DNA of 64,000 nucleotides from Escherichia phage SUT_E1620: sequence record OQ939939; one strand, given 5' to 3'. Positions within the stretch are counted from its first letter, which is position 1. The number at the start of each line of letters is the position of its first letter. Of this stretch, positions 1,098-60,503 are shown piece after piece. Below the pieces are notes generated by a model. It was given only the letters and a program-made list of their open reading frames with translations. It did no database searches and was not told the origin of the DNA. A program made the position numbers and the translations under genes.

Positions 1098-3392
1098 ATG
1101 TCACGTAATTTAATGCCTAAATCTGGCGCAATGGCGCCATACATTGTAGTTAATAGAGACGCTGCTGTTGCTGGTGTTTTCTCTATTGACGGAGAAGCTG
1201 GCGCTGTTGTACTTACTTCTAAGTACTTACAAATCTCTAAATATAATTTAGATCAGCAAGCTCTAGCTACTCGTCTTACTGGAATAGATAGCTCTATTCA
1301 AAGTAATACTGAAGCTATTGGAAATATTAATACTGCAATTGGTAGTATTAATAGTAGTCTAAGTGCCAAAGCGGCTAAGGGTGCTAATAATGATATTACA
1401 GAATTAAATGCACTTACTAAGGCTATTACTGTATCTCAAGGTGGTACAGGTGCTACTTCTCCAGATGGAGCACGTTTAGCACTAGAATTAAATCATCTCA
1501 CTAAGTCAACAGATGTCTCATATATGGGATCTCCTGATGGTTCAAAGTTACTTTATATTAGTAATGAGGGGGCTTGGGGAGTTACTGCTGAGGGTGGTGG
1601 CACTAACTATGCACTACCTATTACTCAAGGTGGTACAGGTGCTTTAAGTGCAGCAGAGGCACTAGTTAAGCTAATGGATGGTAAACCATTACCATTAGCT
1701 GCAGATGGGCAAGCTCCTTATGATGCTGTAACTGTAAGGCAACTATCTAATATTTCTGGTGGCGGAAATGCTAGCATGAGTGGAGTTATGAATAACTTCA
1801 TAGGTGCTGTTGAGTGGTTTAATGGTAACCGTACTAAGCTACCTGCCGGCTATATACCAGCAGACGGTCAATTAGAAAGCCGTACCGATCCTAAGACTAG
1901 GGATCTATGGGCGGCAGTTTCAGGTGGATTATTCGTAAGTGTTAGTGATACAGAGTGGATAACTAACTCCTACGGTCAGGATTACCAAAAAACAGGGAAT
2001 AGAGGTGCATATTCTACAGGAGATGGCTCTACTAACTTCCGTGTACCTGATTTAAACGGCGTTAGAAGAAATGGGGATACTATGGATGGAATTCCTTTTG
2101 CAGGATATGATACCCCTTATGCAGCATTCCTTCGTGGTGACGGTGGTGGTAGTATTAATGGAGTATTTGCCTCTGGGGCGCTAAATATGAGTGCTGCCCC
2201 TAATATAATAGGTAACTTTTCTGTAAGAGTACCAAATAACCATGGAATGTACGCTACTGGTATTTTCTCGGGTATAAATCATACAGGATGGCCTGATGCT
2301 CCAGATGCTAGTTATTCTGGAGGAAGTGGAACAGCGGATTTTGTAGATACTCAGAAGTATGGATATTCTCTAAATGCTGCAGCAGGTAGCCCAGTATATG
2401 GAAGAGATGGTACATCAGAGGTACGCCCTACTGCTGTTACTGGTCTTTGGATTATCCGTGCTAACGGTTCTTTTAACGCTGCTGGTTCACAGTATCATGT
2501 TATTAATGGAGACTCTACACGCCCTGCTGATGGAACTACTACTTATGGTGGCTTTGCGTATAGTGACTACAGAATAGGGGAAACAGTTAATCACTCAGCT
2601 TTAATAGTAAGTGCCAAAAGATTTGGTAATCCTTATAGTGTTGCTGTTCTTCAGTCCTATAATGATGAGACAGGGGATCTTGCCAACCTAGAGGTACAAT
2701 CTAATGGTGTTGTTAACTTACCTACTTCGATTAATAATAAATCCTGGATACAAGCTTTTGGTGCCAACGGCCTGCATTTAGATGCTGCTACTACTGCTCA
2801 AGATCTACATACTATGCCTGGTGGAGGTTGTGGTGTATCTCAAGCAGAGAGAAATGCTATCGAGTTGAATAATAACCCAGGTGCTGTAGGTTCTGGTGGT
2901 TATGTTAACTGGCTGCAAGGATGGTGGTATGACGATAGGTTCCAGTTCGGTGCTATTCGTAGTGGTTCTACTGTATTGGATGCTGTAGCCTTATCTACAT
3001 ATTCTAATGCATTGGGGTTAAAACAGTGGTTCTTTAGGGCTAATGATGGTAGGATTGCTTCCACTGCAGGTACTATTGCTATTGAAGGTTCAGATATCAA
3101 ACTTAAGGAGAATATAGTTAGAGCACCAGAAGGGGCCTTAGATAGAATAACTAAAATCACCCCTAGAGAGTTTGACTGGAAAGCTGGAGGTAGGCATGAT
3201 AGAGGATATATTGCTCAGGAATTACGTGATGTAGATCCTACCTATGTATATTCATCAACTGTTGGGGAAGGAGAAGAGGTATTAAACGTTAGTACATCTG
3301 CTTTGATTTCTGACTTAATAGCTGCTGTTACAACTCTTAAACAAGAGTTGGATTCTGCCAAATTAGAAATTAAAAAGCTAAAAGCTAAATAA
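1098..3392 (+). CDS. Tail fibre protein (764 aa) with C-terminal intramolecular chaperone domain
   Basis: RBS AAGGAAA upstream; repeated QGGTGA motifs; C-terminal REFDWKAGGRHDRGYIAQEL plus coiled coil, similar to the end of the upstream ORF; strong terminator follows. Confidence 0.75.
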   Translation: MSRNLMPKSGAMAPYIVVNRDAAVAGVFSIDGEAGAVVLTSKYLQISKYNLDQQALATRLTGIDSSIQSNTEAIGNINTAIGSINSSLSAKAAKGANNDITELNALTKAITVSQGGTGATSPDGARLALELNHLTKSTDVSYMGSPDGSKLLYISNEGAWGVTAEGGGTNYALPITQGGTGALSAAEALVKLMDGKPLPLAADGQAPYDAVTVRQLSNISGGGNASMSGVMNNFIGAVEWFNGNRTKLPAGYIPADGQLESRTDPKTRDLWAAVSGGLFVSVSDTEWITNSYGQDYQKTGNRGAYSTGDGSTNFRVPDLNGVRRNGDTMDGIPFAGYDTPYAAFLRGDGGGSINGVFASGALNMSAAPNIIGNFSVRVPNNHGMYATGIFSGINHTGWPDAPDASYSGGSGTADFVDTQKYGYSLNAAAGSPVYGRDGTSEVRPTAVTGLWIIRANGSFNAAGSQYHVINGDSTRPADGTTTYGGFAYSDYRIGETVNHSALIVSAKRFGNPYSVAVLQSYNDETGDLANLEVQSNGVVNLPTSINNKSWIQAFGANGLHLDAATTAQDLHTMPGGGCGVSQAERNAIELNNNPGAVGSGGYVNWLQGWWYDDRFQFGAIRSGSTVLDAVALSTYSNALGLKQWFFRANDGRIASTAGTIAIEGSDIKLKENIVRAPEGALDRITKITPREFDWKAGGRHDRGYIAQELRDVDPTYVYSSTVGEGEEVLNVSTSALISDLIAAVTTLKQELDSAKLEIKKLKAK

Positions 3393-3396
3393 AATA

Positions 3397-3428
3397 AAAC
3401 CCCAGTGGACAATCCACTGGGGTTTTTT
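3397..3428. terminator. Bidirectional rho-independent terminator
   Basis: CCCCAGTGG-ACAATC-CCACTGGGG hairpin flanked by A-run upstream and TTTTTT downstream; sits between convergent genes. Confidence 0.85.
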
Positions 3429-3429
3429 A

Positions 3430-3702
3430 TTACTCTTTACTGCCTGCGATAATACCTAAGTTATATACGGCAAGCATAGCCCTAAGGGTAGGATCTTGAG
3501 ACTCAGAACACAGTTTAATAAAACCTTCTTCATCCCATTGCTCTACATTGCCAAACATATCCACTTTTAATACTACCTTATCAAGGGTAGGGGGTGCTAC
3601 AATCACATCATAGAAATTCGGGTGTTGATTAACATCAATCTCTATTTGATTAGGATCAGCAAAATTATTTACTTCCTGAGCTTCCAAAGCCGCCTTCTCC
3701 AC
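3430..3702 (-). CDS. Hypothetical protein (90 aa)
   Basis: Six-frame ORF; overlaps start of downstream dUTPase gene in operon-like fashion. Confidence 0.5.
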   Translation of the reverse strand: MEKAALEAQEVNNFADPNQIEIDVNQHPNFYDVIVAPPTLDKVVLKVDMFGNVEQWDEEGFIKLCSESQDPTLRAMLAVYNLGIIAGSKE

Positions 3703-9595: not shown

Positions 9596-10926
9596 ATTTT
9601 AGCTAATTGTACTGCTTTCTCCGGAGTCATAGTAATAGTTTTCCATGCATTATTGCGATACACGGCCATACGTCCAGAAGCCTGTCTTAAACCAGTACCT
9701 CCTTTCATAATTAAATCTACAACAATCGGATCTAGCTTTCCGTCAACAATACGTTGAACGCGGCCTGCTAACTGTTCTATGAGAGATTCATTATTAATGA
9801 GACTTCCCATTATTAAACAAGACAGCTCGTTAAGAGAAATACCTTCTGAGAAGATACTCTGAGCTGCTGCAAGCACACAGGGTCCGCCCTCCGCTACATC
9901 TTTCTGGATTCTCAATCGGTCATCCAAAGGAGTTGCACCTATAATCTCATAGGTTGTAACACCACGTTGAGCGAGAGCTTCTAGTATTGTTTGAATTAGT
10001 TCTGTTCTATCACTTACAAAGAGAACCTTATGCCCCATAGACACATATAAATGTGCTAAGTTTATAATAGTTTCCCGATATTCAGGATGATTATACACAT
10101 CGTTAGCACGTAATGCCCACGGTACGTTCTGGTTTCCTGATAATTCTACAGGCACGGAGTACCTATGGATTGTGGGTGGAACAGTATTATTAACCGGAGG
10201 ACTAAAGATCTTATATCCAAAGAAGTCTTTGAACATAACTTGTAGCCCATCTTTACGTTTTAATGTACCTGATAGACCGATCTTGTAGCGAGCACATGAG
10301 ATCTCTAGGAAATTAGTGAAAGTTGTAGCTACACAGTGGTGAACTTCATCAACTATAACAGTACCGAATACCTTAGAAAGATTATTCGCATGTTTGTTCA
10401 CTGTTTGTATATTACTGACCACGATTGGTGGATCAATGTTATACTTTCCAGAACCTATAATACCCGGCTCGAATCCAAACCATTTACGAACTTCTGCAGC
10501 CCACATTTCACGAATGGATGTGTTAGTGCAGATTACCAGAGTTTTCTGGCCAAACTTATATGCAAGAGCTAGAGCTAGGATAGTTTTACCAAATCCAGGC
10601 TTACCATTGATAATACAAGTATCATCGCACTCTTCATATATAGGAAGCTGATCTTCCTCACGTAGCTTGAACTGAGGTTCTGGTATTTCTACCGGAGCTA
10701 ACGTGCGTTTGTCAACTAATTCGTATTTTACTCCCTTAGCATCTAGTAAATCTAGACGCGTAATGGGAATCCACTTAATCTCTTTAGCAACAACACCACT
10801 ATTCTTATACATAATAGGGTATTTACTAGTCATTGTCTCGATGTGATAAGTGGTTTGTTTACTACAGTAATCCCAGAGTTCATCATCGGGCTTGAAATAG
10901 GCTTTATTAGATATAACAACCTTCAT
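9574..10926 (-). CDS. DNA helicase, superfamily 2 (T5 D10-like)
   Basis: Walker A GKPGFGKT, DEAH-like DEVHH, helicase C-terminal motifs (QLAGRVQR). Confidence 0.85.
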   Translation of the reverse strand: MKVVISNKAYFKPDDELWDYCSKQTTYHIETMTSKYPIMYKNSGVVAKEIKWIPITRLDLLDAKGVKYELVDKRTLAPVEIPEPQFKLREEDQLPIYEECDDTCIINGKPGFGKTILALALAYKFGQKTLVICTNTSIREMWAAEVRKWFGFEPGIIGSGKYNIDPPIVVSNIQTVNKHANNLSKVFGTVIVDEVHHCVATTFTNFLEISCARYKIGLSGTLKRKDGLQVMFKDFFGYKIFSPPVNNTVPPTIHRYSVPVELSGNQNVPWALRANDVYNHPEYRETIINLAHLYVSMGHKVLFVSDRTELIQTILEALAQRGVTTYEIIGATPLDDRLRIQKDVAEGGPCVLAAAQSIFSEGISLNELSCLIMGSLINNESLIEQLAGRVQRIVDGKLDPIVVDLIMKGGTGLRQASGRMAVYRNNAWKTITMTPEKAVQLAKIAFGNCS

Positions 10927-29229: not shown

Positions 29230-29280
29230 TTTATGAGAATATAATATCAAATAAAAGCGATATAAGCAAGTACTTTATTT
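29230..29280 (-). promoter_or_regulatory. Sigma70-type early promoter (minus strand) for accessory operon
   Basis: Reverse complement TTGCTT-N17-TATTAT plus CATAAATTTGAGAGG box. Confidence 0.65.
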
Positions 29281-29965
29281 ATTTTTCTACCTTCACACAC
29301 CCATTATTAATTAAATACTCTTCCGCGACTGTAGCAGATATATCGAAGAATTCAGTACATCCAGCAAATCCTGTATACTTTAACCTATATCCTGAAAAGT
29401 ATTCATGAGCCTGCTTCTCAATAGCTCTACTTTTAGACTTGGTACCTATATCTACTGAATAGACACCAAAAATATACAAATCCATTATATTGGAACTTTT
29501 AACTATCTCTTTCCTTCGTCTTTCAGGAGAGACACTAATTCCTATTTTAGTTCCCATATTACTACACATAATGTATATAAAACCAGGAACACTCCAATCA
29601 GTATCACATACAGGACATCCAGAATTCTTATTCTTTACATTACCTACTGTAGCTTCCCACGTATGCCCATACTCACATTCAAAAAGGGTTTTAGTAGCAT
29701 TATTTTTATACTCTCCAATAAGGGTTATACCTCTGCCACGTAACTCTTCGTTCACCGAATCTTTGGTAAGCTTTAAAGTACCTGAGCATATTGGACAGCC
29801 AGATTTGCTGTTCCTTACATTATTAACCGTAGCTTCCCACGTATGACCTATATTACATCTGAACGTACCCTTACTAAGGATTCCTGAATACTCGCTTACT
29901 AGCTTAATTCTTCTAGGCTCTAAATCTTTATTGATAGTATCTTTATCTAACTTCCTTCGTACCAT
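29279..29965 (-). CDS. Duplicated zinc-ribbon protein with C-terminal T5orf172-like (GIY-YIG-related) domain
   Basis: Two repeats of GHTWEATVxNVxNxxSGCPxC; C-terminal GFIYIMCSNMGTKIGIS resembles T5orf172 domain core. Confidence 0.6.
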   Translation of the reverse strand: MVRRKLDKDTINKDLEPRRIKLVSEYSGILSKGTFRCNIGHTWEATVNNVRNSKSGCPICSGTLKLTKDSVNEELRGRGITLIGEYKNNATKTLFECEYGHTWEATVGNVKNKNSGCPVCDTDWSVPGFIYIMCSNMGTKIGISVSPERRRKEIVKSSNIMDLYIFGVYSVDIGTKSKSRAIEKQAHEYFSGYRLKYTGFAGCTEFFDISATVAEEYLINNGCVKVEK

Positions 29966-30053: not shown

Positions 30054-31928
30054 TTATTTAGCGCGAATGTCCTGATGTTTCACTCGACCCATAACCTCAT
30101 GTTGTTTACCTGGGTTAAACGGACGAGCACCTGGATTTCCAAGATATCCACAAACTCGACGAGTTACCTCAAGAGTCTCAGGATCATGATTGCCACAAAT
30201 TGGGCATTTGAAACCATCCTCAGAAGCTATAGTTTCACCCAAGAACCCACATTCCCCACAAGAGTCTACTGGAGTATTAATACCGAAGTAATGAACTTTA
30301 CTTGCAGCATAGTTAATAACCCATTCCAGTGCATCAGGGAATCGTTTCATATCCGGTAATTCCACATAGGAAATGCACCCACCAGAAGCAATAGGAGTAA
30401 AGTTAGACTCATAATCAAACTTCACATTTGGAGCAACCTTACGTTCTACATCAAGGTGATGGGAATTAGTGTAATATCCTTTAGCCAGAATATCTTCATG
30501 CTCTGGGAAATACTCACGGTCTAGGCGACAGAAGCGATCACATAGAGATTCAGATGGTGTAGCATACAGACTATACCCTAATTGAGTCTCTTCCTTCTTC
30601 TGATCAGCACGATCACGCATGTATTGTAGCACACGTTGAACGAACTTGATACAAGACTCAGACATTGTATCTACATCTTTACCAAACATGAGTTGCAACA
30701 TTTCGTGGCAGCCAATATATCCTAGGGATACAGAAGCACGCTTGTAGAAATGATCAAATACATATTCATCTGGCCCCAGACGTAATCCAAAGGCTCCTGA
30801 CATATAGAGGATGGGCGCAGCTTTAGCTTGAATGTATTTTAAGCGATCAACCCTCCACTCCAATGCTTTTAACGCGGTATCCACACGCAGCTCAAGCAGA
30901 TCGAAGAATAGATCAATATTTCCTTCCGCTTCGATAGCGATTCGAGGAAGGTTTACGGAAACAACGCCTAAGTTGTTACGACCAGAAGTTTCACCATCTT
31001 CCGCAGCAGCCAGGAATGAACGACAGCCCATAGAGACTTTGTAGTCCCCCGTAACTTCTACAACCTTATCATAACTGATGTAGTCAGGATACATACGTTC
31101 AGCAGTACATTTCATAGCTAACTTCTTGATATCATAGTTAACATCACCAGGTTTCATGTTTACGCCCTCACGCAAAACAAATACCAGTTTAGGGAAGATA
31201 GCTGTACGTTTATTGATACCCAAACCATCCATACGTACTTCTAGTATTGCTTTCTGTACAAGACGTGCTTCCCAAGAAGTTCCTAGACCAAAACCAAAGG
31301 TAATAAACGGACTTTGACCATTAGAGTTGAACATCGTATTGATTTCATACTCCAGGCCCTGACAGGCATCGTAAACTTCTTTCTCAGTCATTTCCGTAGC
31401 CATTACAGATGCTTTAGCTTCATCCTTAGTCCAACGCTTTGCAAACGCATGATTCTTATCATAAGACTTACGAACATAAGGAGCCAATACTTCATCTAAT
31501 CGGTCTACAGAAGTACCCCCATATTGATGTGAACTAACCTGAGTGATAATCTGAGCTGTGATAGCAGCCGCAGTAGTAATAGAGTTTGGTGTACTGATTT
31601 CAGCATTACCAACCTTCATACCATTCTTCAACATATCTTCCAAAGCAACCAGGCAACAGTTAGTCATACCTAACGCAGCGTAATCAGCATCATGGAAGTG
31701 AATATCACCAATCATGTGAGCATTTCGAATCTGGATTGGCATTTCTTCCAGAATCAGATATTTACTCAATTCCCCTGCAAGCATATCCCTTTGTGTAGGG
31801 AAACGTTCTGAGGGCTTATTGGCATTATTAAACAGCAGCTCTTCATCTGCTGAACCTTCGATAATTTCTTTGCAGTTTCGAATCAAGGACTGCATTCCTT
31901 TATACTTTAGTTCTTCATTGCGATTCAT
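30054..31928 (-). CDS. nrdD: Anaerobic ribonucleoside-triphosphate reductase (class III RNR)
   Basis: 624 aa; C-terminal zinc site CGECGF...CPICG and glycyl-radical motif RVCGYLG. Confidence 0.9.
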   Translation of the reverse strand: MNRNEELKYKGMQSLIRNCKEIIEGSADEELLFNNANKPSERFPTQRDMLAGELSKYLILEEMPIQIRNAHMIGDIHFHDADYAALGMTNCCLVALEDMLKNGMKVGNAEISTPNSITTAAAITAQIITQVSSHQYGGTSVDRLDEVLAPYVRKSYDKNHAFAKRWTKDEAKASVMATEMTEKEVYDACQGLEYEINTMFNSNGQSPFITFGFGLGTSWEARLVQKAILEVRMDGLGINKRTAIFPKLVFVLREGVNMKPGDVNYDIKKLAMKCTAERMYPDYISYDKVVEVTGDYKVSMGCRSFLAAAEDGETSGRNNLGVVSVNLPRIAIEAEGNIDLFFDLLELRVDTALKALEWRVDRLKYIQAKAAPILYMSGAFGLRLGPDEYVFDHFYKRASVSLGYIGCHEMLQLMFGKDVDTMSESCIKFVQRVLQYMRDRADQKKEETQLGYSLYATPSESLCDRFCRLDREYFPEHEDILAKGYYTNSHHLDVERKVAPNVKFDYESNFTPIASGGCISYVELPDMKRFPDALEWVINYAASKVHYFGINTPVDSCGECGFLGETIASEDGFKCPICGNHDPETLEVTRRVCGYLGNPGARPFNPGKQHEVMGRVKHQDIRAK

Positions 31929-32215: not shown

Positions 32216-32280
32216 AAGTTGATAAACAAGATCTTTTTGTTGATCCTCTGTTAGCGAAGTACACTATAGGAGTGTTATTT

Positions 32281-33033
32281 ATGGGAAAAGCACGTCAAAA
32301 AAGAGAGAACCGCAATGGTTCAAGAAAGCGTGGCAACAAGTATGAGAGTAACGTAATTCAAGCAGATTTCTCTGGTGATTACGCCAATCCAGTTGCTAAA
32401 TCCCTAGTTGGTAAAAACCGTGAGCAAAAATCATATATCAATATGATCAAGAACAACACAGTGACTGTGGGTATTGGTGAACCAGGTACTGGTAAAACCT
32501 TTATTCCGTCCGTTCTTGCAGCTCAGGAACTCGTAGACATTCACTCAGATATTGAGCAAGTGATCCTCGTGCGTCCGAACGAACCTCTAGGTAAATCTCT
32601 TGGTATGCTCCCAGGTGATCTGGCAGAAAAGCTAGAGCCTTGGTTGGAACCAATAGCCGATGGCATGAAATGGGCAATCGGTGATCACGCCTACAAAGGA
32701 TATGTCGAACGTCAGAAAATTAAATTCCTGGCTATCGAACATGCCCGTGGCCGAACTTTCAACAACTCCTATGTAATTGTCGATGAAGCTCAGAATATCT
32801 CCGTTGAAGCAATGATCTGTCTTTTGACTCGTGTAGGACAAGATTGTCGTTTAATTATCTGTGGAGATATAGCTCAGAAAGACATCAAGGGTGATTCAGG
32901 TCTAGCACTTCTTATGGAAGTCTATGAGAAGTACGAAAACTCTCCTTTCTCTATGATCGAACTGATCGACAACGTTCGCTCACCAGAGTCTAAAGCATTC
33001 TACGATATCTTTAAGGATATGGGGAAGGTGTAA
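32281..33033 (+). CDS. phoH: PhoH-like ATPase
   Basis: Walker A GEPGTGKT, Walker B VIVDEAQ; ATG at 32281 preceded by AGGAG (track ORF uses upstream GTG). Confidence 0.85.
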   Translation: MGKARQKRENRNGSRKRGNKYESNVIQADFSGDYANPVAKSLVGKNREQKSYINMIKNNTVTVGIGEPGTGKTFIPSVLAAQELVDIHSDIEQVILVRPNEPLGKSLGMLPGDLAEKLEPWLEPIADGMKWAIGDHAYKGYVERQKIKFLAIEHARGRTFNNSYVIVDEAQNISVEAMICLLTRVGQDCRLIICGDIAQKDIKGDSGLALLMEVYEKYENSPFSMIELIDNVRSPESKAFYDIFKDMGKV

Positions 33034-33034
33034 T

Positions 33035-33277
33035 ATGGGAAACGTCGTACATCTGCACCGCAAAACTAAGATCCACCGTACTTCATTGAGTGCTGCTAAT
33101 ATGATTACACGTAAGGAAGGGGAAGAAAGTCCTAAGACTACCCTAGCGTGGAAAATTGTAGCCTCTAATCCAAATCGGCCTTTCAACTATAATGAACTGA
33201 GTACTTCTATAGACATTCTTATGGCTAAGGAAATACGACAGAAACTAACTGATATGACCGATAAACTTAAATGGTAA
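33035..33277 (+). CDS. Hypothetical protein (80 aa)
   Basis: ORF overlapping phoH stop; terminator follows. Confidence 0.5.
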   Translation: MGNVVHLHRKTKIHRTSLSAANMITRKEGEESPKTTLAWKIVASNPNRPFNYNELSTSIDILMAKEIRQKLTDMTDKLKW

Positions 33278-33285
33278 GACAGACG

Positions 33286-33318
33286 AGCCTGGGTATGAAA
33301 ATATCCGGGCTCTTTTTA
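33286..33318 (+). terminator. Rho-independent terminator
   Basis: GAGCCTGG...CCGGGCTC hairpin followed by TTTTT. Confidence 0.7.
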
Positions 33319-33400
33319 TCTGTAAAATTGTACTTGCAAAATGACTCAAAACAAAGTAGAATATCTCCTAAATCCTGATAACTACAAAAAGGAAAGCCAA

Positions 33401-35731
33401 ATGAGCCATCGTATAGAAAAAGTAATTAAACGTGACGGTACTGTTCAGGACTTTGCTCCTGAAAAACTCAATGATTGGGCTGCATGGGCATGTAAAGATA
33501 CTGACGTAAGTTGGTCTGCCGTAGTTATGGCTGCCCTGAAAAATCTACCCAAAGGTGTTGTAGACTCCGATACACTCCAAGATGTGTTAATTAAAGCCGC
33601 TGAAGGTCTTATCAAAGACAACCCAGCATATGATACTGTAGCAAAGGAATTACGTCTTGCGCAGATGCGTAAACGCCTATACGATTCCTTTGAACCTCCT
33701 TCTCTGCGTTTCTTCCACGATCATATGGTTCGTGTTGGCGCCTGGGAAGACATGAGTGCATGGATTAGCGATGATCAGTTTGATGCTCTGAATCAAGTTA
33801 TTGATCATGATCGCGATCGTTTATTCACCAGTGGTGGGCTGAAACAGTTCTTCGACAAGTATTCCCGTCGTAATATTGCAACTGGTGAAATTTATGAAAC
33901 CCCGCAGTTTGCTTACATGGGTATGGCAATGGCGATGTTATCTCAACCTAACTGGACAATTCTAGATGCAATCGACCTCTACAATGCAATGTCGCTCCAC
34001 AAAATCAACGTTCCTACGCCGCCACTGGTTGGCCTGCGCTCTAGTGACCGTGGATTTGCTAGTTGCTGTCTCGTGGATTCCACTGACACGCTGGATTCAA
34101 TCGACACAGCCGAGCACATCGTCTTCAAAATGGTCGCAGCCAGAGCGGGAATCGGGTATCATCTTGAAAGCCGATCAATTGCTGATCCGGTGCGAAATGG
34201 GGCATTCCCGCATTCCGGAAAACTGCCATATTATCGACACATTGACCGATCAGTAAAAGCTAACACTCAGCAAACCCGTGGCGGTTCTGCTACTGTGTCT
34301 TATCCATACTTCGATCCTGAAATCATTCAGTTGATGCAGGTTAAGCAGCAACGTGCTACAGACGAGAATAAAATCGATAAGATGGATTACTCTCTGAGCT
34401 TTAACAACCTTCTATTAAAACGTTACCTGAAAAACGAAGATATTACGCTAATGTCCTACTTCTACGCACCAGAAGTTCATGAAGCGTTTTATGGCGAAGA
34501 TGAGGCTAAGTTTGAAGAAATCTACGTGGCAGCGGAGAAACGTGTGGCTTCTCTTACAAAGATCGACCACGAAGGAAAAACAATTCCAGCAGCTCCTAGA
34601 ATCTCTGCAAAAGAAATCCTAGATACTTGGTTACGTATCCGTATGGAAACAGGGCGTATGTATGCTCATCACATTGGTGAATCTAACCGTCATGGTAACT
34701 TCCTTGACCCGATTCGTATGACCAACCTTTGTGTTGAAATTACTCAGCCAACCCGTCCATTCCATCACATTACGGAGCTGTATAAGACCCAAGATCAGTT
34801 AGACGATATGCGTCCAGAAGATATTGGTGAAGTATCTCTGTGTAACTTAGGTGGTGTTGTACTAGGTCGTATGGAATCTCTGGCTGAATGGGAGAAAACT
34901 TGCTACATTCTTCTGAAATTCGTTGATACAATCATCGAGATTCAGGATTACCCATTCCCAACTATGGAGTACACGGCTAAGAAACGTCGTAACGTTGGTA
35001 TTGGTCTGATGAACGCAGCAGGTGCAATGGCAGCAGAAGGTTTGGCTTACGAAGGTGTTGAAGCCCGTAACTGGATTCACCGTGAAGCTGAAAAGCTGTC
35101 CTACTTCCTACATAAAGCCTCTGTACGTCTGGCTAAAGAACAAGGTGCATGTGACTGGTTTAATCGTACTAAGCCTTCGCAAGGAACTCTGGTAATCGAC
35201 ACGTACAAGAAAACTGTTGATGAACTGGTAACTGTAGGTCTAGAAATGGATTGGGAATCTCTGCGTGCAGATATTCTGAAATATGGTATGCGCAACTCTG
35301 TTCTTACTGCTCAGATGCCAGGTGAAAGTTCCTCTGTACTGCTAGGTGTTACTAACTCTATCGAACCGCCCCGTAAGATCGTATCTATCAAGGGTAGTGC
35401 AGTGAATAAAGTAATTGCAATTGCTCCAGGTGCAACTGATTGGGATACATTAATGAGCTATAAACTGGCTTATGATGTAGATCGTATCGAGTGGATCAAA
35501 TGGGTAGCAACCATGCAGAAATTCTTCAGCCAGTCTATCAGTACGAATATGTACTATGACTACACCAAGTTCGAGAATGAAATCATTCCCGGCCCAGTAG
35601 TAGTTCGTGACTTTATGACTGCTGTTAAGTACGGTTGGAAAACTTGGTACTACGCTAACTTCAACACTGAAAATGGTGGTGGAGCTGGTGAAGAAGCAGC
35701 AGGTTGTGCATCAGGTGGTTGTAACCTATAA
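33401..35731 (+). CDS. nrdA: Ribonucleoside-diphosphate reductase large subunit (class Ia)
   Basis: ATP-cone N-terminus (VIKRDGT), active-site NLCVEI, C-terminal Cys pair; start at MSHRIEK with RBS AAGGAAA (track start 33341 lies in promoter). Confidence 0.9.
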   Translation: MSHRIEKVIKRDGTVQDFAPEKLNDWAAWACKDTDVSWSAVVMAALKNLPKGVVDSDTLQDVLIKAAEGLIKDNPAYDTVAKELRLAQMRKRLYDSFEPPSLRFFHDHMVRVGAWEDMSAWISDDQFDALNQVIDHDRDRLFTSGGLKQFFDKYSRRNIATGEIYETPQFAYMGMAMAMLSQPNWTILDAIDLYNAMSLHKINVPTPPLVGLRSSDRGFASCCLVDSTDTLDSIDTAEHIVFKMVAARAGIGYHLESRSIADPVRNGAFPHSGKLPYYRHIDRSVKANTQQTRGGSATVSYPYFDPEIIQLMQVKQQRATDENKIDKMDYSLSFNNLLLKRYLKNEDITLMSYFYAPEVHEAFYGEDEAKFEEIYVAAEKRVASLTKIDHEGKTIPAAPRISAKEILDTWLRIRMETGRMYAHHIGESNRHGNFLDPIRMTNLCVEITQPTRPFHHITELYKTQDQLDDMRPEDIGEVSLCNLGGVVLGRMESLAEWEKTCYILLKFVDTIIEIQDYPFPTMEYTAKKRRNVGIGLMNAAGAMAAEGLAYEGVEARNWIHREAEKLSYFLHKASVRLAKEQGACDWFNRTKPSQGTLVIDTYKKTVDELVTVGLEMDWESLRADILKYGMRNSVLTAQMPGESSSVLLGVTNSIEPPRKIVSIKGSAVNKVIAIAPGATDWDTLMSYKLAYDVDRIEWIKWVATMQKFFSQSISTNMYYDYTKFENEIIPGPVVVRDFMTAVKYGWKTWYYANFNTENGGGAGEEAAGCASGGCNL

Positions 35732-35740
35732 TAAAAACAA

Positions 35741-35768
35741 GGAGATCTTCGGGTCTCCTTTTTTCTTT
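35741..35768 (+). terminator. Rho-independent terminator
   Basis: GGAGATC-TTCG-GGTCTCC hairpin + TTTTTTCT. Confidence 0.8.
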
Positions 35769-35771
35769 GAA

Positions 35772-35815
35772 ATTTTACTTGCTAATCGCTACCAGATTTG
35801 CTATAATATTCCTGA
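35772..35815 (+). promoter_or_regulatory. Sigma70-type early promoter
   Basis: TTGCTA (35779-35784), N18, TATAAT (35803-35808). Confidence 0.65.
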
Positions 35816-35838
35816 AATAGTGAGAAAGAGGAAAATCA

Positions 35839-36984
35839 ATGACTACTTTACTAAACCTGAATTGGGATCATACTAACGCTGACCTTTTCCTGGGCGATTC
35901 TCTTGGTATCGCAGATTACGTTCGTGTAGCACATCCTGAACTTGAGCGTCTAGCACTTCTGCAACGTTCTCAATTTTGGACTGAAACTGAAATCAGTCTG
36001 GAAGCCGATAAGAAACAATGGCCAAACCTTCCGCGTGATATTCAGGAAATTACTCTCCTGAACTTAGCATGGCAGACCCAAACAGATTCTTTCATTAGCC
36101 GTGCTCCTGAAGCAGCTATTATGCCGCTTGTAAGCCGTCCTGAATTGGAGGGTATGCTCAAGCAGTGGAGCTACTTCGAAGATCTGCACAGCCGTGCGTA
36201 TAGTAATATTATTCGTAACGTTCTGACTGATCCAGCAGAATTTATTGATTCTGTAACTAAAAACCAAGAAGCATTTGCACGTATCGCAGATTCTGTTGAA
36301 CTGTTTGATGAATTGTATCTGTTAGGTCAGTATTTCCTTGCAGTACGTAATCATCGTGGTGATAATACTTATCCAGAAACTGAGTTCCCTGAAGTTAAAC
36401 GTGAAACTCAGGCTAAGCTGTTAGATGCTTACTTTGCAATCTACGGTCTGGAAGCAATGCAGTTCTACGCATCCTTTGCATGTACCTTTGCTCTAGCAGA
36501 GAACGATATTCTGCAAGGTATTGCTAAGAACCTGCAATTAATCGCTAAAGATGAAGCTCTACATACTCAAATGTCTAAAGCTATCATCCAGATTATGTTC
36601 CAGCAGTTTGATAAAGATCTGGTAGACGAAGCATTAGCTAAAGCACCAGCACAACTCCTAAAAACTCTGAAAACTGAGATTGAATGGGGCCACTTTATCT
36701 TTAAAGGCCGCAGTCTGATTGGTTTGAACGCAGAATTGCTTGAAGAATACCTTTACTTTGTAGGACGTAACGCATTTATGCACATTGGTGTAGAATGGCC
36801 AAACCACTTACCTGTAATTACTAAGAATCCGATTCCGTGGATCATGAACTGGTTGGATACTACTTCTCTACAACCTGCTCCGCAAGAGATTCAGATTGGT
36901 GCAGCCTACCGCGTAGGTCAAGTCACAGAAACCTCTGCTGATACTCTGAAAGATCTTGGCAACGAATTTGAGGGTATGTTCTAA
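35839..36984 (+). CDS. nrdB: Ribonucleoside-diphosphate reductase small subunit
   Basis: 381 aa; di-iron ligand motifs (ExxH pairs), directly downstream of nrdA. Confidence 0.85.
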   Translation: MTTLLNLNWDHTNADLFLGDSLGIADYVRVAHPELERLALLQRSQFWTETEISLEADKKQWPNLPRDIQEITLLNLAWQTQTDSFISRAPEAAIMPLVSRPELEGMLKQWSYFEDLHSRAYSNIIRNVLTDPAEFIDSVTKNQEAFARIADSVELFDELYLLGQYFLAVRNHRGDNTYPETEFPEVKRETQAKLLDAYFAIYGLEAMQFYASFACTFALAENDILQGIAKNLQLIAKDEALHTQMSKAIIQIMFQQFDKDLVDEALAKAPAQLLKTLKTEIEWGHFIFKGRSLIGLNAELLEEYLYFVGRNAFMHIGVEWPNHLPVITKNPIPWIMNWLDTTSLQPAPQEIQIGAAYRVGQVTETSADTLKDLGNEFEGMF

Positions 36985-58228: not shown

Positions 58229-58599
58229 AGAACAGAGGATTAGGTCTTTGCACCAGATCCTGCTGAGAAGAGAGCCCACATTCTATAAATGGCCGGGCGT
58301 GACAGCAGGAAGTAGACTGCAACTCCATGCTATCCAGGAGTATAAATGTAGAAGCTAAGACTTTAGATAGCCATTGTCTTAGCGTGAGCAATCACGTAGT
58401 TGCAACAGACCTGGAAGATCGCAACGTTAAAATCAAAGTTCCAGTGCTTATTTATCTAATCGAGACCATCAATCTCACCGGAATGCTAGCACCCCAACAG
58501 TAGCTAGTGATTAGATAGTAAGCAAGCCTGCCTTCCAGTTTTTATCTTGCTTCTGGGTTAACAAAAAGCTGAGCCAAATTCTAACATCAGGGAGATCTA

Positions 58600-58968
58600 A
58601 TGAAAGCATATCAAAGTCTTAAGTCTGGCGTAATTAACATTGTTCATAACAATCAGATCATTCAACTATATTCTAAAGATGGTGAACTTAAACAGAAAGT
58701 TCTAGTCGAAGATCTAGAAGGTATCACACCTCACTTTGACCCTGAGGCCTTTCGCATTGTAGATGTGGAAGTGGTTCCTCAAGTCGAGGGTGGTCAGCAC
58801 CTAAATGTCAATGTGTTAAGCCGTGATCAGCTTTTGGATGCACAGAAACATCCTGAAAAATATCCTCAGTTGACCATCCGTGTCTCTGGCTATGCTGTTC
58901 GATTTAACGCATTGACGCGTGAACAACAGAACGACGTTATTAGTCGTACATTTACTCAGGCGATATAA
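58600..58968 (+). CDS. grcA: Autonomous glycyl-radical cofactor (GrcA/YfiD-like) protein
   Basis: C-terminal ~70 aa ([12 protein letters not shown]...[23 protein letters not shown]...RTFTQ) closely matches GrcA/PFL C-terminus as I recall it, including RVSGYAV glycyl-radical motif. Confidence 0.75.
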
Positions 58969-59049
58969 TGGGGTTTGGATACGATTTCTCCCAGCTACGC
59001 AAGGTAGTCGAGCAAACTCCATTTATCTCCCAAGTTTTAGGAGAAATGT

Positions 59050-59343
59050 GTGGATCGAGCATTAAGACGCCATCACCGGCAACGTGTGAAAAACAATCGC
59101 AAAAAGTATTGGACAGTCTTCCCACATGAAGAAAGCCCTAAGCGGTTAGGCATTATCACTACCACTCCTTGCATCTGTTCTTGTTGGATGTGTGGGAATC
59201 CTCGCAAATACTATAAGAATAGTAAAGCAGGCATGAAAATCTCGGAGATTAAAAAGATGGATGCAATGATCTTAGGTATCGGATACGGCGAAGGTATTTC
59301 AAATGATGAATTTGATGGCTTCGTAGGTTTCGGTAAAGGTTAA
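59050..59343 (+). CDS. Basic Cys-cluster protein (97 aa)
   Basis: Motif PCICSCWMCGNP (CxCxCxxC), basic N-terminus; function unknown. Confidence 0.5.
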   Translation: MDRALRRHHRQRVKNNRKKYWTVFPHEESPKRLGIITTTPCICSCWMCGNPRKYYKNSKAGMKISEIKKMDAMILGIGYGEGISNDEFDGFVGFGKG

Positions 59344-60005: not shown

Positions 60006-60503
60006 ATGGAAACCTGGAAAGACATAACAGGTTTTGAGGGTAAATACCAGATATCTAATAATGGGAATGTCTCTAGTTATTTATCTGGTAAAATTCTCAA
60101 ACCCCAAGTAAATAGACAAGGGTATCTTGTCGTCAACCTATATTATGAAGTAGGTAAAGCTAGAAAATTTAGGATACACAGACTTGTAGCTGAGCACTTT
60201 ATACCTAATCCAGATAATAAACCCTTCGTTAATCATCTGGATGGTGATAAGTCAAATAATGACGAGGATAACCTAGAATGGAGCACCTCGGAAGAGAATA
60301 ATAGACATGCCCGTGAAAATGGTTTAGCTAATTGGGCGAAAGGGGAACAGCATGGTAGGTGTAAACTATCTGATGCAGATATCTTTTGGATAAGAAGTCA
60401 TTATCAGCCAAGAAACCGAGAATTTGGTCAAGCTGCTTTAGCTAGGATGTTCGGTGTAAGTCAACCTCACATATCGTATATAATTAACGGGCATAAAAGG
60501 TAA
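60006..60503 (+). CDS. HNH homing endonuclease with C-terminal HTH
   Basis: N-terminal ITGFEGKYQISNNGNV motif, HNH-like HRLVAEHFIPN...NHLDGDKSNN, C-terminal HTH-like segment. Confidence 0.7.
   Translation: METWKDITGFEGKYQISNNGNVSSYLSGKILKPQVNRQGYLVVNLYYEVGKARKFRIHRLVAEHFIPNPDNKPFVNHLDGDKSNNDEDNLEWSTSEENNRHARENGLANWAKGEQHGRCKLSDADIFWIRSHYQPRNREFGQAALARMFGVSQPHISYIINGHKR

Follow-up and report, generated by a model that had tools for sequence, protein, structure and literature searches.

To judge by its family, the 122-residue protein described here, encoded by Escherichia phage SUT_E1620, is a GrcA-type spare part for glycyl-radical chemistry. We consider it highly probable that the protein is activated by the host's PflA and repairs host pyruvate formate-lyase (PFL, the product of pflB) after cleavage by oxygen, and that host activases serve both this protein and the second glycyl-radical protein of the phage, the class III ribonucleotide reductase NrdD. 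The window, by which we mean the whole stretch of 64,000 nucleotides analysed here (record OQ939939), derives from a T5-like siphovirus (Demerecviridae, Epseptimavirus). The closest records to this phage are only about 96–97% identical. Positions of the features discussed below are collected in Table 1.

Table 1. Features of the phage DNA considered in this work, with their positions in the window.
Feature	Position	Strand	Remarks
GrcA/Y06I-type autonomous glycyl-radical cofactor gene	58600..58968	+	122 aa, ATG start, stop codon included; ORF list, Pfam, NCBIfam, PDB and PHROG matches
Shine-Dalgarno sequence GGGAG of the GrcA-like gene	58590..58594	+	5 nt upstream of the ATG; read from the sequence
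N-terminal half of the GrcA-like protein, residues 1–60	58600..58779	+	probably a diverged GrcA N-region, predicted to be beta-rich
C-terminal glycyl-radical domain, residues 61–122	58780..58965	+	counterpart of PflB 698–759
RVSGYAV loop	58879..58899	+	within the C-terminal domain of the GrcA-like protein
Radical Gly97 codon	58888..58890	+	within RVSGYAV
97-aa basic Cys-rich ORF (RRHHRQR...PCICSCWMCGNPRK)	59050..59343	+	GTG start after AGGAG; phrog_4499
NUMOD4/HNH_3 homing endonuclease	60006..60503	+	1 kb downstream of the GrcA-like gene
228-aa protein, DUF4379 treble-clef zinc finger + CapR + T5orf172/MUG113	29279..29965	-	directly downstream of nrdD
NrdD, class III ribonucleotide reductase	30054..31928	-	624 aa, no ATP cone; Pfam NRDD E 2e-172
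NrdD Gly594 codon	30147..30149	-	radical glycine of the second glycyl-radical protein
phoH-like gene + nrdA + nrdB block	32272..36984	+	ORFs; same order annotated in GreteKellenberger
nrdA	33341..35731	+	aerobic class Ia reductase
nrdB	35839..36984	+	aerobic class Ia reductase; block adjoins nrdD

The initial annotation had described an open reading frame that ends in a GrcA/PFL glycyl-radical module. The frame is as described, the peptide quoted from it corresponds to residues 94–106, and the homology search proposed as a check bore out the similarity to GrcA in Pfam, NCBIfam and PDB alike. Pfam Gly_radical (PF01228) matches residues 62–122 (E 4e-18), and the top curated models for the protein are three NCBIfam GrcA models, of which TIGR04365 comes first (E 2e-34). 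The best PDB match is E. coli GrcA/YfiD (6OWR; residues 50–121, E 2e-29), followed by residues 698–758 of E. coli PFL (E 2e-26), and PHROG 1209 matches the protein over its whole length (E 7e-47). This match to the glycyl-radical family is far beyond chance. An alignment of 23 sequences, made up of phage proteins, bacterial proteins and the PflB C-terminus, contains 37 invariant columns, among them E63, G64, Q66, H67 and the whole P89–N103 stretch (numbering of the phage protein). Pfam, PDB, the alignment and a structural superposition all identify a PFL-type radical domain that includes the RVSGYAV loop. The proteins GrcA/YfiD and Y06I are small and stand alone, at about 115–130 residues, and the phage protein is of the same kind, with 122 residues, a Shine-Dalgarno sequence of its own and its own stop codon.

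YfiD and T4 Y06I are the only two validated spare-part proteins (PMC8683613, PMC13450708). As cited in PMC8683613, Wagner et al. (2001; BBRC 285:456) reported that the E. coli PFL activase puts a glycyl radical on Y06I, and the same work, as relayed in PMC8683613 and PMC13450708, is the source for the rescue of PFL cleaved by oxygen at Gly734 by activated YfiD or Y06I. The protein described here aligns end to end with Y06I (Vs.6, gene vs.6), at 52% identity over residues 1–122. The two are of nearly the same length (122 aa here and 120 aa in T4), both start with MKAYQ, both belong to PHROG 1209 and both have the same PFL-type domain; neither gene is linked to nrdD in its own genome. They differ in the N-terminal half, where the T5 clade has another middle segment in place of the AR-I-V-SK of T4, and in the relation of their 3′ ends to the host, the last 62 codons being 96% DNA-identical to E. 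coli grcA in T4 and only 70% in the T5-type gene. In T4 vs.6 these 62 codons specify 61 of 62 residues as in E. coli K-12 grcA while the N half is phage-type (positions 3001–3363 of the T4 locus aligned with 3067–3450 of the E. coli locus), and Y06I of T4 looks like a recent chimera that arose by recombination with host grcA.

Relative to E. coli GrcA (YfiD, 6OWR, TIGR04365), the phage protein is 74% identical over its residues 51–122 and 79% identical over the final 62. The two share the RVSGYAV loop, every invariant residue of the radical domain and the overall architecture, whereas their N-terminal halves can barely be aligned; a further difference is that the phage gene, being phage-encoded, lies outside host regulation. 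Identity to the C-terminal domain of PflB (residues 698–759; 2PFL, 1H16) is 76% over 61–62 residues. A PFL enzyme has about 760 residues, a ten-stranded barrel and the catalytic pair Cys418–Cys419. We rejected identity with PFL or 2-ketobutyrate formate-lyase for the phage protein, which with its 122 residues covers PflB positions 698–759 only. The names "pyruvate formate-lyase", "formate acetyltransferase" and "2-ketobutyrate formate-lyase" are wrong for it, because it lacks the barrel of roughly 700 residues and the catalytic Cys418/Cys419.

These enzyme names are nonetheless in use. GenBank already contains the identical protein, in some records as glycyl radical cofactor, and names across the family's records vary from pyruvate formate-lyase, 2-ketobutyrate formate-lyase, formate acetyltransferase and acetyltransferase-related to ribonucleotide reductase subunit. 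Autonomous glycyl radical cofactor GrcA is also found, and a T2 record has "tail sheath monomer". PHROGs v4 labels phrog_1209 "unknown function" despite the characterisation of T4 Y06I.

The N-terminal half is where the phage protein departs from its bacterial counterparts. The NCBIfam GrcA HMM aligns with residues 54–121 only, and alignment and HMM agree that no other N half in the family has diverged as far as that of the T5 clade. The phage protein as a whole aligns end to end with T4 Y06I and with PHROG 1209, and the 23-sequence alignment shows weak motifs common to the T4, jumbo-phage and bacterial GrcA proteins. The protein scores 118.3 bits in total against TIGR04365 and falls short of the 170-bit equivalog cut-off; the scores are 234 for E. 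coli GrcA, 153.3 for T4 Y06I and about 136 for the jumbo-phage forms. Since the validated T4 Y06I also scores under 170, the cut-off marks the bacterial equivalog and not function.

An AlphaFold model of the phage protein (mean pLDDT 77) has four strands in the N half, at pLDDT 86–90, and a C-terminal part consisting of a helix and the Gly-hairpin module, which superposes on PFL (2PFL) at 0.8 Å over 42 residues. We considered whether the N-terminal beta-sheet was a novelty of the phage and rejected this, as bacterial GrcA, modelled likewise with the same kind of alignment, is given a similar beta-rich N half of high confidence. Because the bacterial model also shows it, the predicted beta-rich N half is a trait of the family. 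By NMR the N half of YfiD is disordered, and it matters both for binding to cleaved PFL and for activation (PMC8683613).

By tBLASTN the protein is present in 1585 phage records. About 440 of these are T5-like phages at identities of at least 86%, some of 100%; the remainder are T4-like phages, whose matches all span 100% of the query, RaK2-type jumbo phages, and Vibrio and Aeromonas relatives of T4. The 3-kb neighbourhood of the gene is 95–97% identical to many Salmonella and Escherichia phages. The gene itself is identical at the DNA level to bas26_0140 of Escherichia phage GreteKellenberger, which is about 96% identical over the 3-kb region. Against the Tequintavirus orthologues of T5_ev219 and VSe12, at dS of about 0.6, dN/dS is 0.07–0.09 overall; by half it is 0.105 for residues 1–60 and 0.02–0.05 for residues 61–122. 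Both halves are under purifying selection, the C-terminal half very strongly.

These data bear on the idea that the phage picked up the 3′ end of a host pflB or grcA gene and that this fragment, without function, is drifting in the variable tRNA region. Its position among the small ORFs and homing endonucleases of that region would suit such an origin, as would the inconsistent names given by annotators. The selection analysis effectively refutes it, however, and we give it next to no credence: an unbroken frame is kept by about 440 T5-like genomes and across at least four phage lineages, and the gene has a good Shine-Dalgarno sequence. At the DNA level it matches E. coli grcA and pflB at only 70–73%, which marks it as an old gene that the phage has maintained.

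The GrcA-like gene closes the phage tRNA cluster on the downstream side and runs in the same direction as the tRNA genes, 27 of which are located upstream of it between 46.6 and 58.0 kb. Downstream are small genes with no assigned function and then the HNH homing endonuclease. The latter is present in some relatives only, the matches of several records stopping at about query position 2500. A scan for promoters and terminators around the GrcA-like gene gave counts at the level of shuffled sequence.

Two of the small downstream frames overlap. The 97-aa ORF differs from its counterparts in two Tequintaviruses by substitutions that are all at third codon positions, and its residues 1–69 recur in Erwinia, Serratia and Rhizobium jumbo phages; because of this substitution pattern and this recurrence we regard it, from its sequence, as a real gene. 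The 49 nt that precede its start are identical in all three phages compared. In GreteKellenberger the annotation covers no more of this gene than a fragment for the C-terminal 53 aa, starting inside the Cys motif. The overlapping frame of 53 aa at 58968..59129 (+ strand; phrog_31464) is annotated in several records and shows no coding pattern.

The initial annotation had also noted a phage NrdD with a radical motif of its own, encoded far from the GrcA-like gene. The Pfam NRDD match and the sequence RRVCGYLG agree with the first point, and the distance of 26.7 kb between the two genes with the second. The reductase retains C91, the finger-loop M300-x-C302, the Zn-ribbon cysteines 557, 560, 575 and 578, and G594, and so has the radical glycine, finger-loop cysteine and Zn ribbon of a class III NrdD. 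It is 54% identical to E. coli NrdD, and like T4 NrdD it has no ATP cone. In the 31 residues around the radical glycine, 25 are as in E. coli NrdD, compared with 18 of 31 for T4 NrdD. T4 NrdD needs its own NrdG. The similarity of the radical loop is consistent with activation of the phage NrdD by host NrdG, with which it agrees but which it does not prove; from its residues the enzyme looks catalytically intact and host-compatible. As for the gene next to nrdD that encodes the 228-aa zinc-finger protein, GreteKellenberger has only a 93-aa hypothetical gene at the same position, and for this reason the 228-aa gene is probably a mobile, nuclease-type insertion.

No activase of the NrdG/PflA type had been recognised in the window by the initial annotation, and our searches of it by motif scan and tBLASTN likewise came up empty. 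Of the window's open frames with 50 aa or more, only the 97-aa ORF has a CxxxCxxC match. We rejected this ORF as a mini-activase: it is basic and far too short for a radical-SAM enzyme, has no Pfam match, belongs to phrog_4499 and occurs in unrelated jumbo phages. The whole-genome search that had been suggested was run on the complete 114-kb genome of GreteKellenberger and found none there either. Its other CxxxCxxC matches were set aside, since they fall in frames that are antisense or carry no annotation, or close to the C-terminal end of a small hypothetical protein, and no activase is listed in its annotation. With E. coli NrdG, E. coli PflA and T4 NrdG as queries, tBLASTN of the window and of the complete GreteKellenberger genome gave E-values of 0.48 or worse. 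This negative result is meaningful because the same queries found NrdG both in RaK2 and in Aeromonas phage 65 (1e-31 to 1e-39; 38–47% identity), and PflA and NrdG also showed up by cross-detection, at 1e-8 to 1e-11. A class III module comprises NrdD and its cognate NrdG, and the latter was found neither in the window nor in the relative's complete genome, a difference from T4, which encodes NrdG.

To our knowledge, no PflA homologue has been described in T4 either, and lack of a phage-encoded PFL activase is therefore the norm for the family. For NrdD, a phage collection contained the reductase in 2923 records and NrdG in 2273, and in size this excess corresponds to the group of Demerecviridae NrdD, which accounts for 387 records at identities of at least 90% and a further 160 at 60–80%. 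RNRdb holds 30 phage NrdD and 21 NrdG entries (PMC2795772), and Dwivedi et al. (2013) reported that many phages carry only nrdD together with nrdAB, with phoH between nrdD and nrdAB in T5, SPC35 and EPS7 (PMC3653736). The order nrdD-phoH-nrdAB of these three phages is exactly that of the phage studied here, and the three are apparently among the phages with nrdD and without nrdG in that study. As no phage activase was found, the GrcA-like protein would need host PflA and NrdD would need host NrdG, in keeping with the earlier suggestion that both depend on host activases. The link drawn there between this pair of genes and anaerobic or oxidatively damaging conditions is supported as well, such a rationale being accepted for GrcA/Y06I (PMC8683613). 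The novelty implied does not hold up: T4 Y06I was characterised in 2001, and the missing activase of T5-type phages has already been published.

Based on these findings and on the work on YfiD and Y06I, the following sequence of events can be proposed. The GrcA-like gene would be expressed early in infection. Constitutive PflA of the host would then recognise the unchanged loop and take a hydrogen from Gly97, a step that the sequence suggests and that has been observed in vitro for the T4 homologue. Once oxygen has cut active PflB at Gly734, the phage protein would dock into the shortened enzyme, fill the place of the missing C-terminal domain and restore PFL activity, as demonstrated for YfiD and Y06I. 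What the phage would gain is continued production of acetyl-CoA, ATP and formate in micro-oxic, fermenting host cells. The host would probably be unable to induce its own stress-responsive grcA after infection, because in a T5-type infection the host genome is shut off and broken down. A1 acts in host shut-off and genome degradation in T5-type phages, and an A1 protein is annotated in GreteKellenberger.

An exact PflA recognition loop might equally be expected of a decoy that sequesters the PflA of the host or obstructs PflB, thereby shutting down or redirecting fermentation, and the strong divergence of the N half in the T5 clade could be read in the same way, as in YfiD this half mediates productive binding to cleaved PFL. 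We nonetheless think a decoy quite improbable. Conservation extends beyond the activase-binding loop to all 37 columns that are invariant in GrcA and PflB C-termini, the C-terminal half has the very low dN/dS given above, and the effect of T4 Y06I on PFL is to restore it, not to inhibit it (PMC8683613).

Repair of PflB by the phage protein could bring an additional benefit, in that sustained PFL activity would feed formate to the phage NrdD, as biochemistry and the gene neighbourhood in other phages would suggest. PFL is the main source of formate in fermenting enterobacteria. Formate is the reductant of class III reductases of the E. coli/T4 type (PMC4493059; PMC2795772, Table 1). We compared 80 viral loci with a GrcA-like gene, and in 4 of the 80 both NrdD and NrdG are encoded within 10 kb. 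The gene order is nrdD-nrdG-vs.6-nrdC-nrdB in Aeromonas phage 65, nrdD-vs.6-nrdA.1-nrdG in RaK2, and nrdD-hyp-grcA-hyp-MTase-nrdG in Yersinia phage fHe-Yen9-04 and a related 357-kb phage. The GrcA-like gene is unlinked to nrdD in T4-like and T5-like phages, and nrdD is present in every GrcA-carrying lineage examined. Together, the three lineages with linkage to nrdD and nrdG and the constant co-occurrence with nrdD suggest a role of phage GrcA in formate supply. On this basis we tentatively raise the possibility, which we hold to be less probable than PFL repair as such, that phage GrcA-type proteins, instead of helping fermentation in general, belong to a module for anaerobic dNTP synthesis and, by way of host PFL, secure the formate that NrdD cannot do without as its reductant. 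Retention of the GrcA-like gene by T5-type phages, which are without NrdG, fits this reading. The formate coupling rests on three lineages, two of which may be jumbo phages related to each other, and a shared gut or anaerobic niche could explain the co-occurrence of GrcA and nrdD. A literature search for T5-like phages with PFL/GrcA, or for a link between GrcA, NrdD and formate, returned nothing relevant; such work has possibly been published elsewhere.

The same gene arrangements could be taken to mean that the protein is a dedicated accessory of NrdD, either a spare radical domain for NrdD cleaved by oxygen or a relay that lets host PflA replace NrdG. In RaK2 and fHe-Yen9-04 the gene has nrdD on one side and nrdG on the other, in Aeromonas phage 65 it adjoins nrdG, all GrcA-carrying lineages examined have nrdD, some GenBank records say ribonucleotide reductase subunit, and the literature raises the question whether glycyl-radical enzymes besides PFL have spare parts as well (PMC8683613, PMC13450708). 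We judge it very unlikely all the same. The domain is PFL-type throughout, at 76–79% identity to PflB and GrcA, with RVSGYAV instead of RVCGYLG, and the protein has no Zn ribbon. The T4 orthologue works on PFL with the PFL activase (PMC8683613). Moreover, nrdG is present in all three linked lineages, which argues against a replacement of NrdG. It is thus unlikely that the GrcA-like protein is the first spare part for a non-PFL enzyme, namely NrdD, and we prefer repair of host PFL as its role.

In one further locus, an IMG/VR provirus contig, E. coli pflB and the adjoining intergenic region run on into pflA for its initial 15 nt (ATGTCAGTTATTGGT) before unrelated sequence takes over (L077, positions 10255–10700), and tBLASTN of this locus detected no PflA. 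The arrangement suggests that a mobile element or prophage has inserted at the 5′ end of pflA in this contig.

The protein family, the mechanism and the dependence on the host activase are already known from T4 Y06I, and the addition made here is a modest one, the presence of a GrcA-like gene inside the nrdD-nrdG cluster of Aeromonas phage 65, RaK2 and a Yersinia jumbo phage. It is also useful to note that the phage GrcA family is named inconsistently across records. T5-like phages offer a clean natural case in which two glycyl-radical proteins would rely fully on the radical-SAM activases of the host. The recurrent location of the gene within phage nrdD-nrdG clusters provides a testable tie by which, in phages infecting gut bacteria, the repair of PFL would be connected with the supply of formate and with dNTP synthesis under anaerobic conditions.
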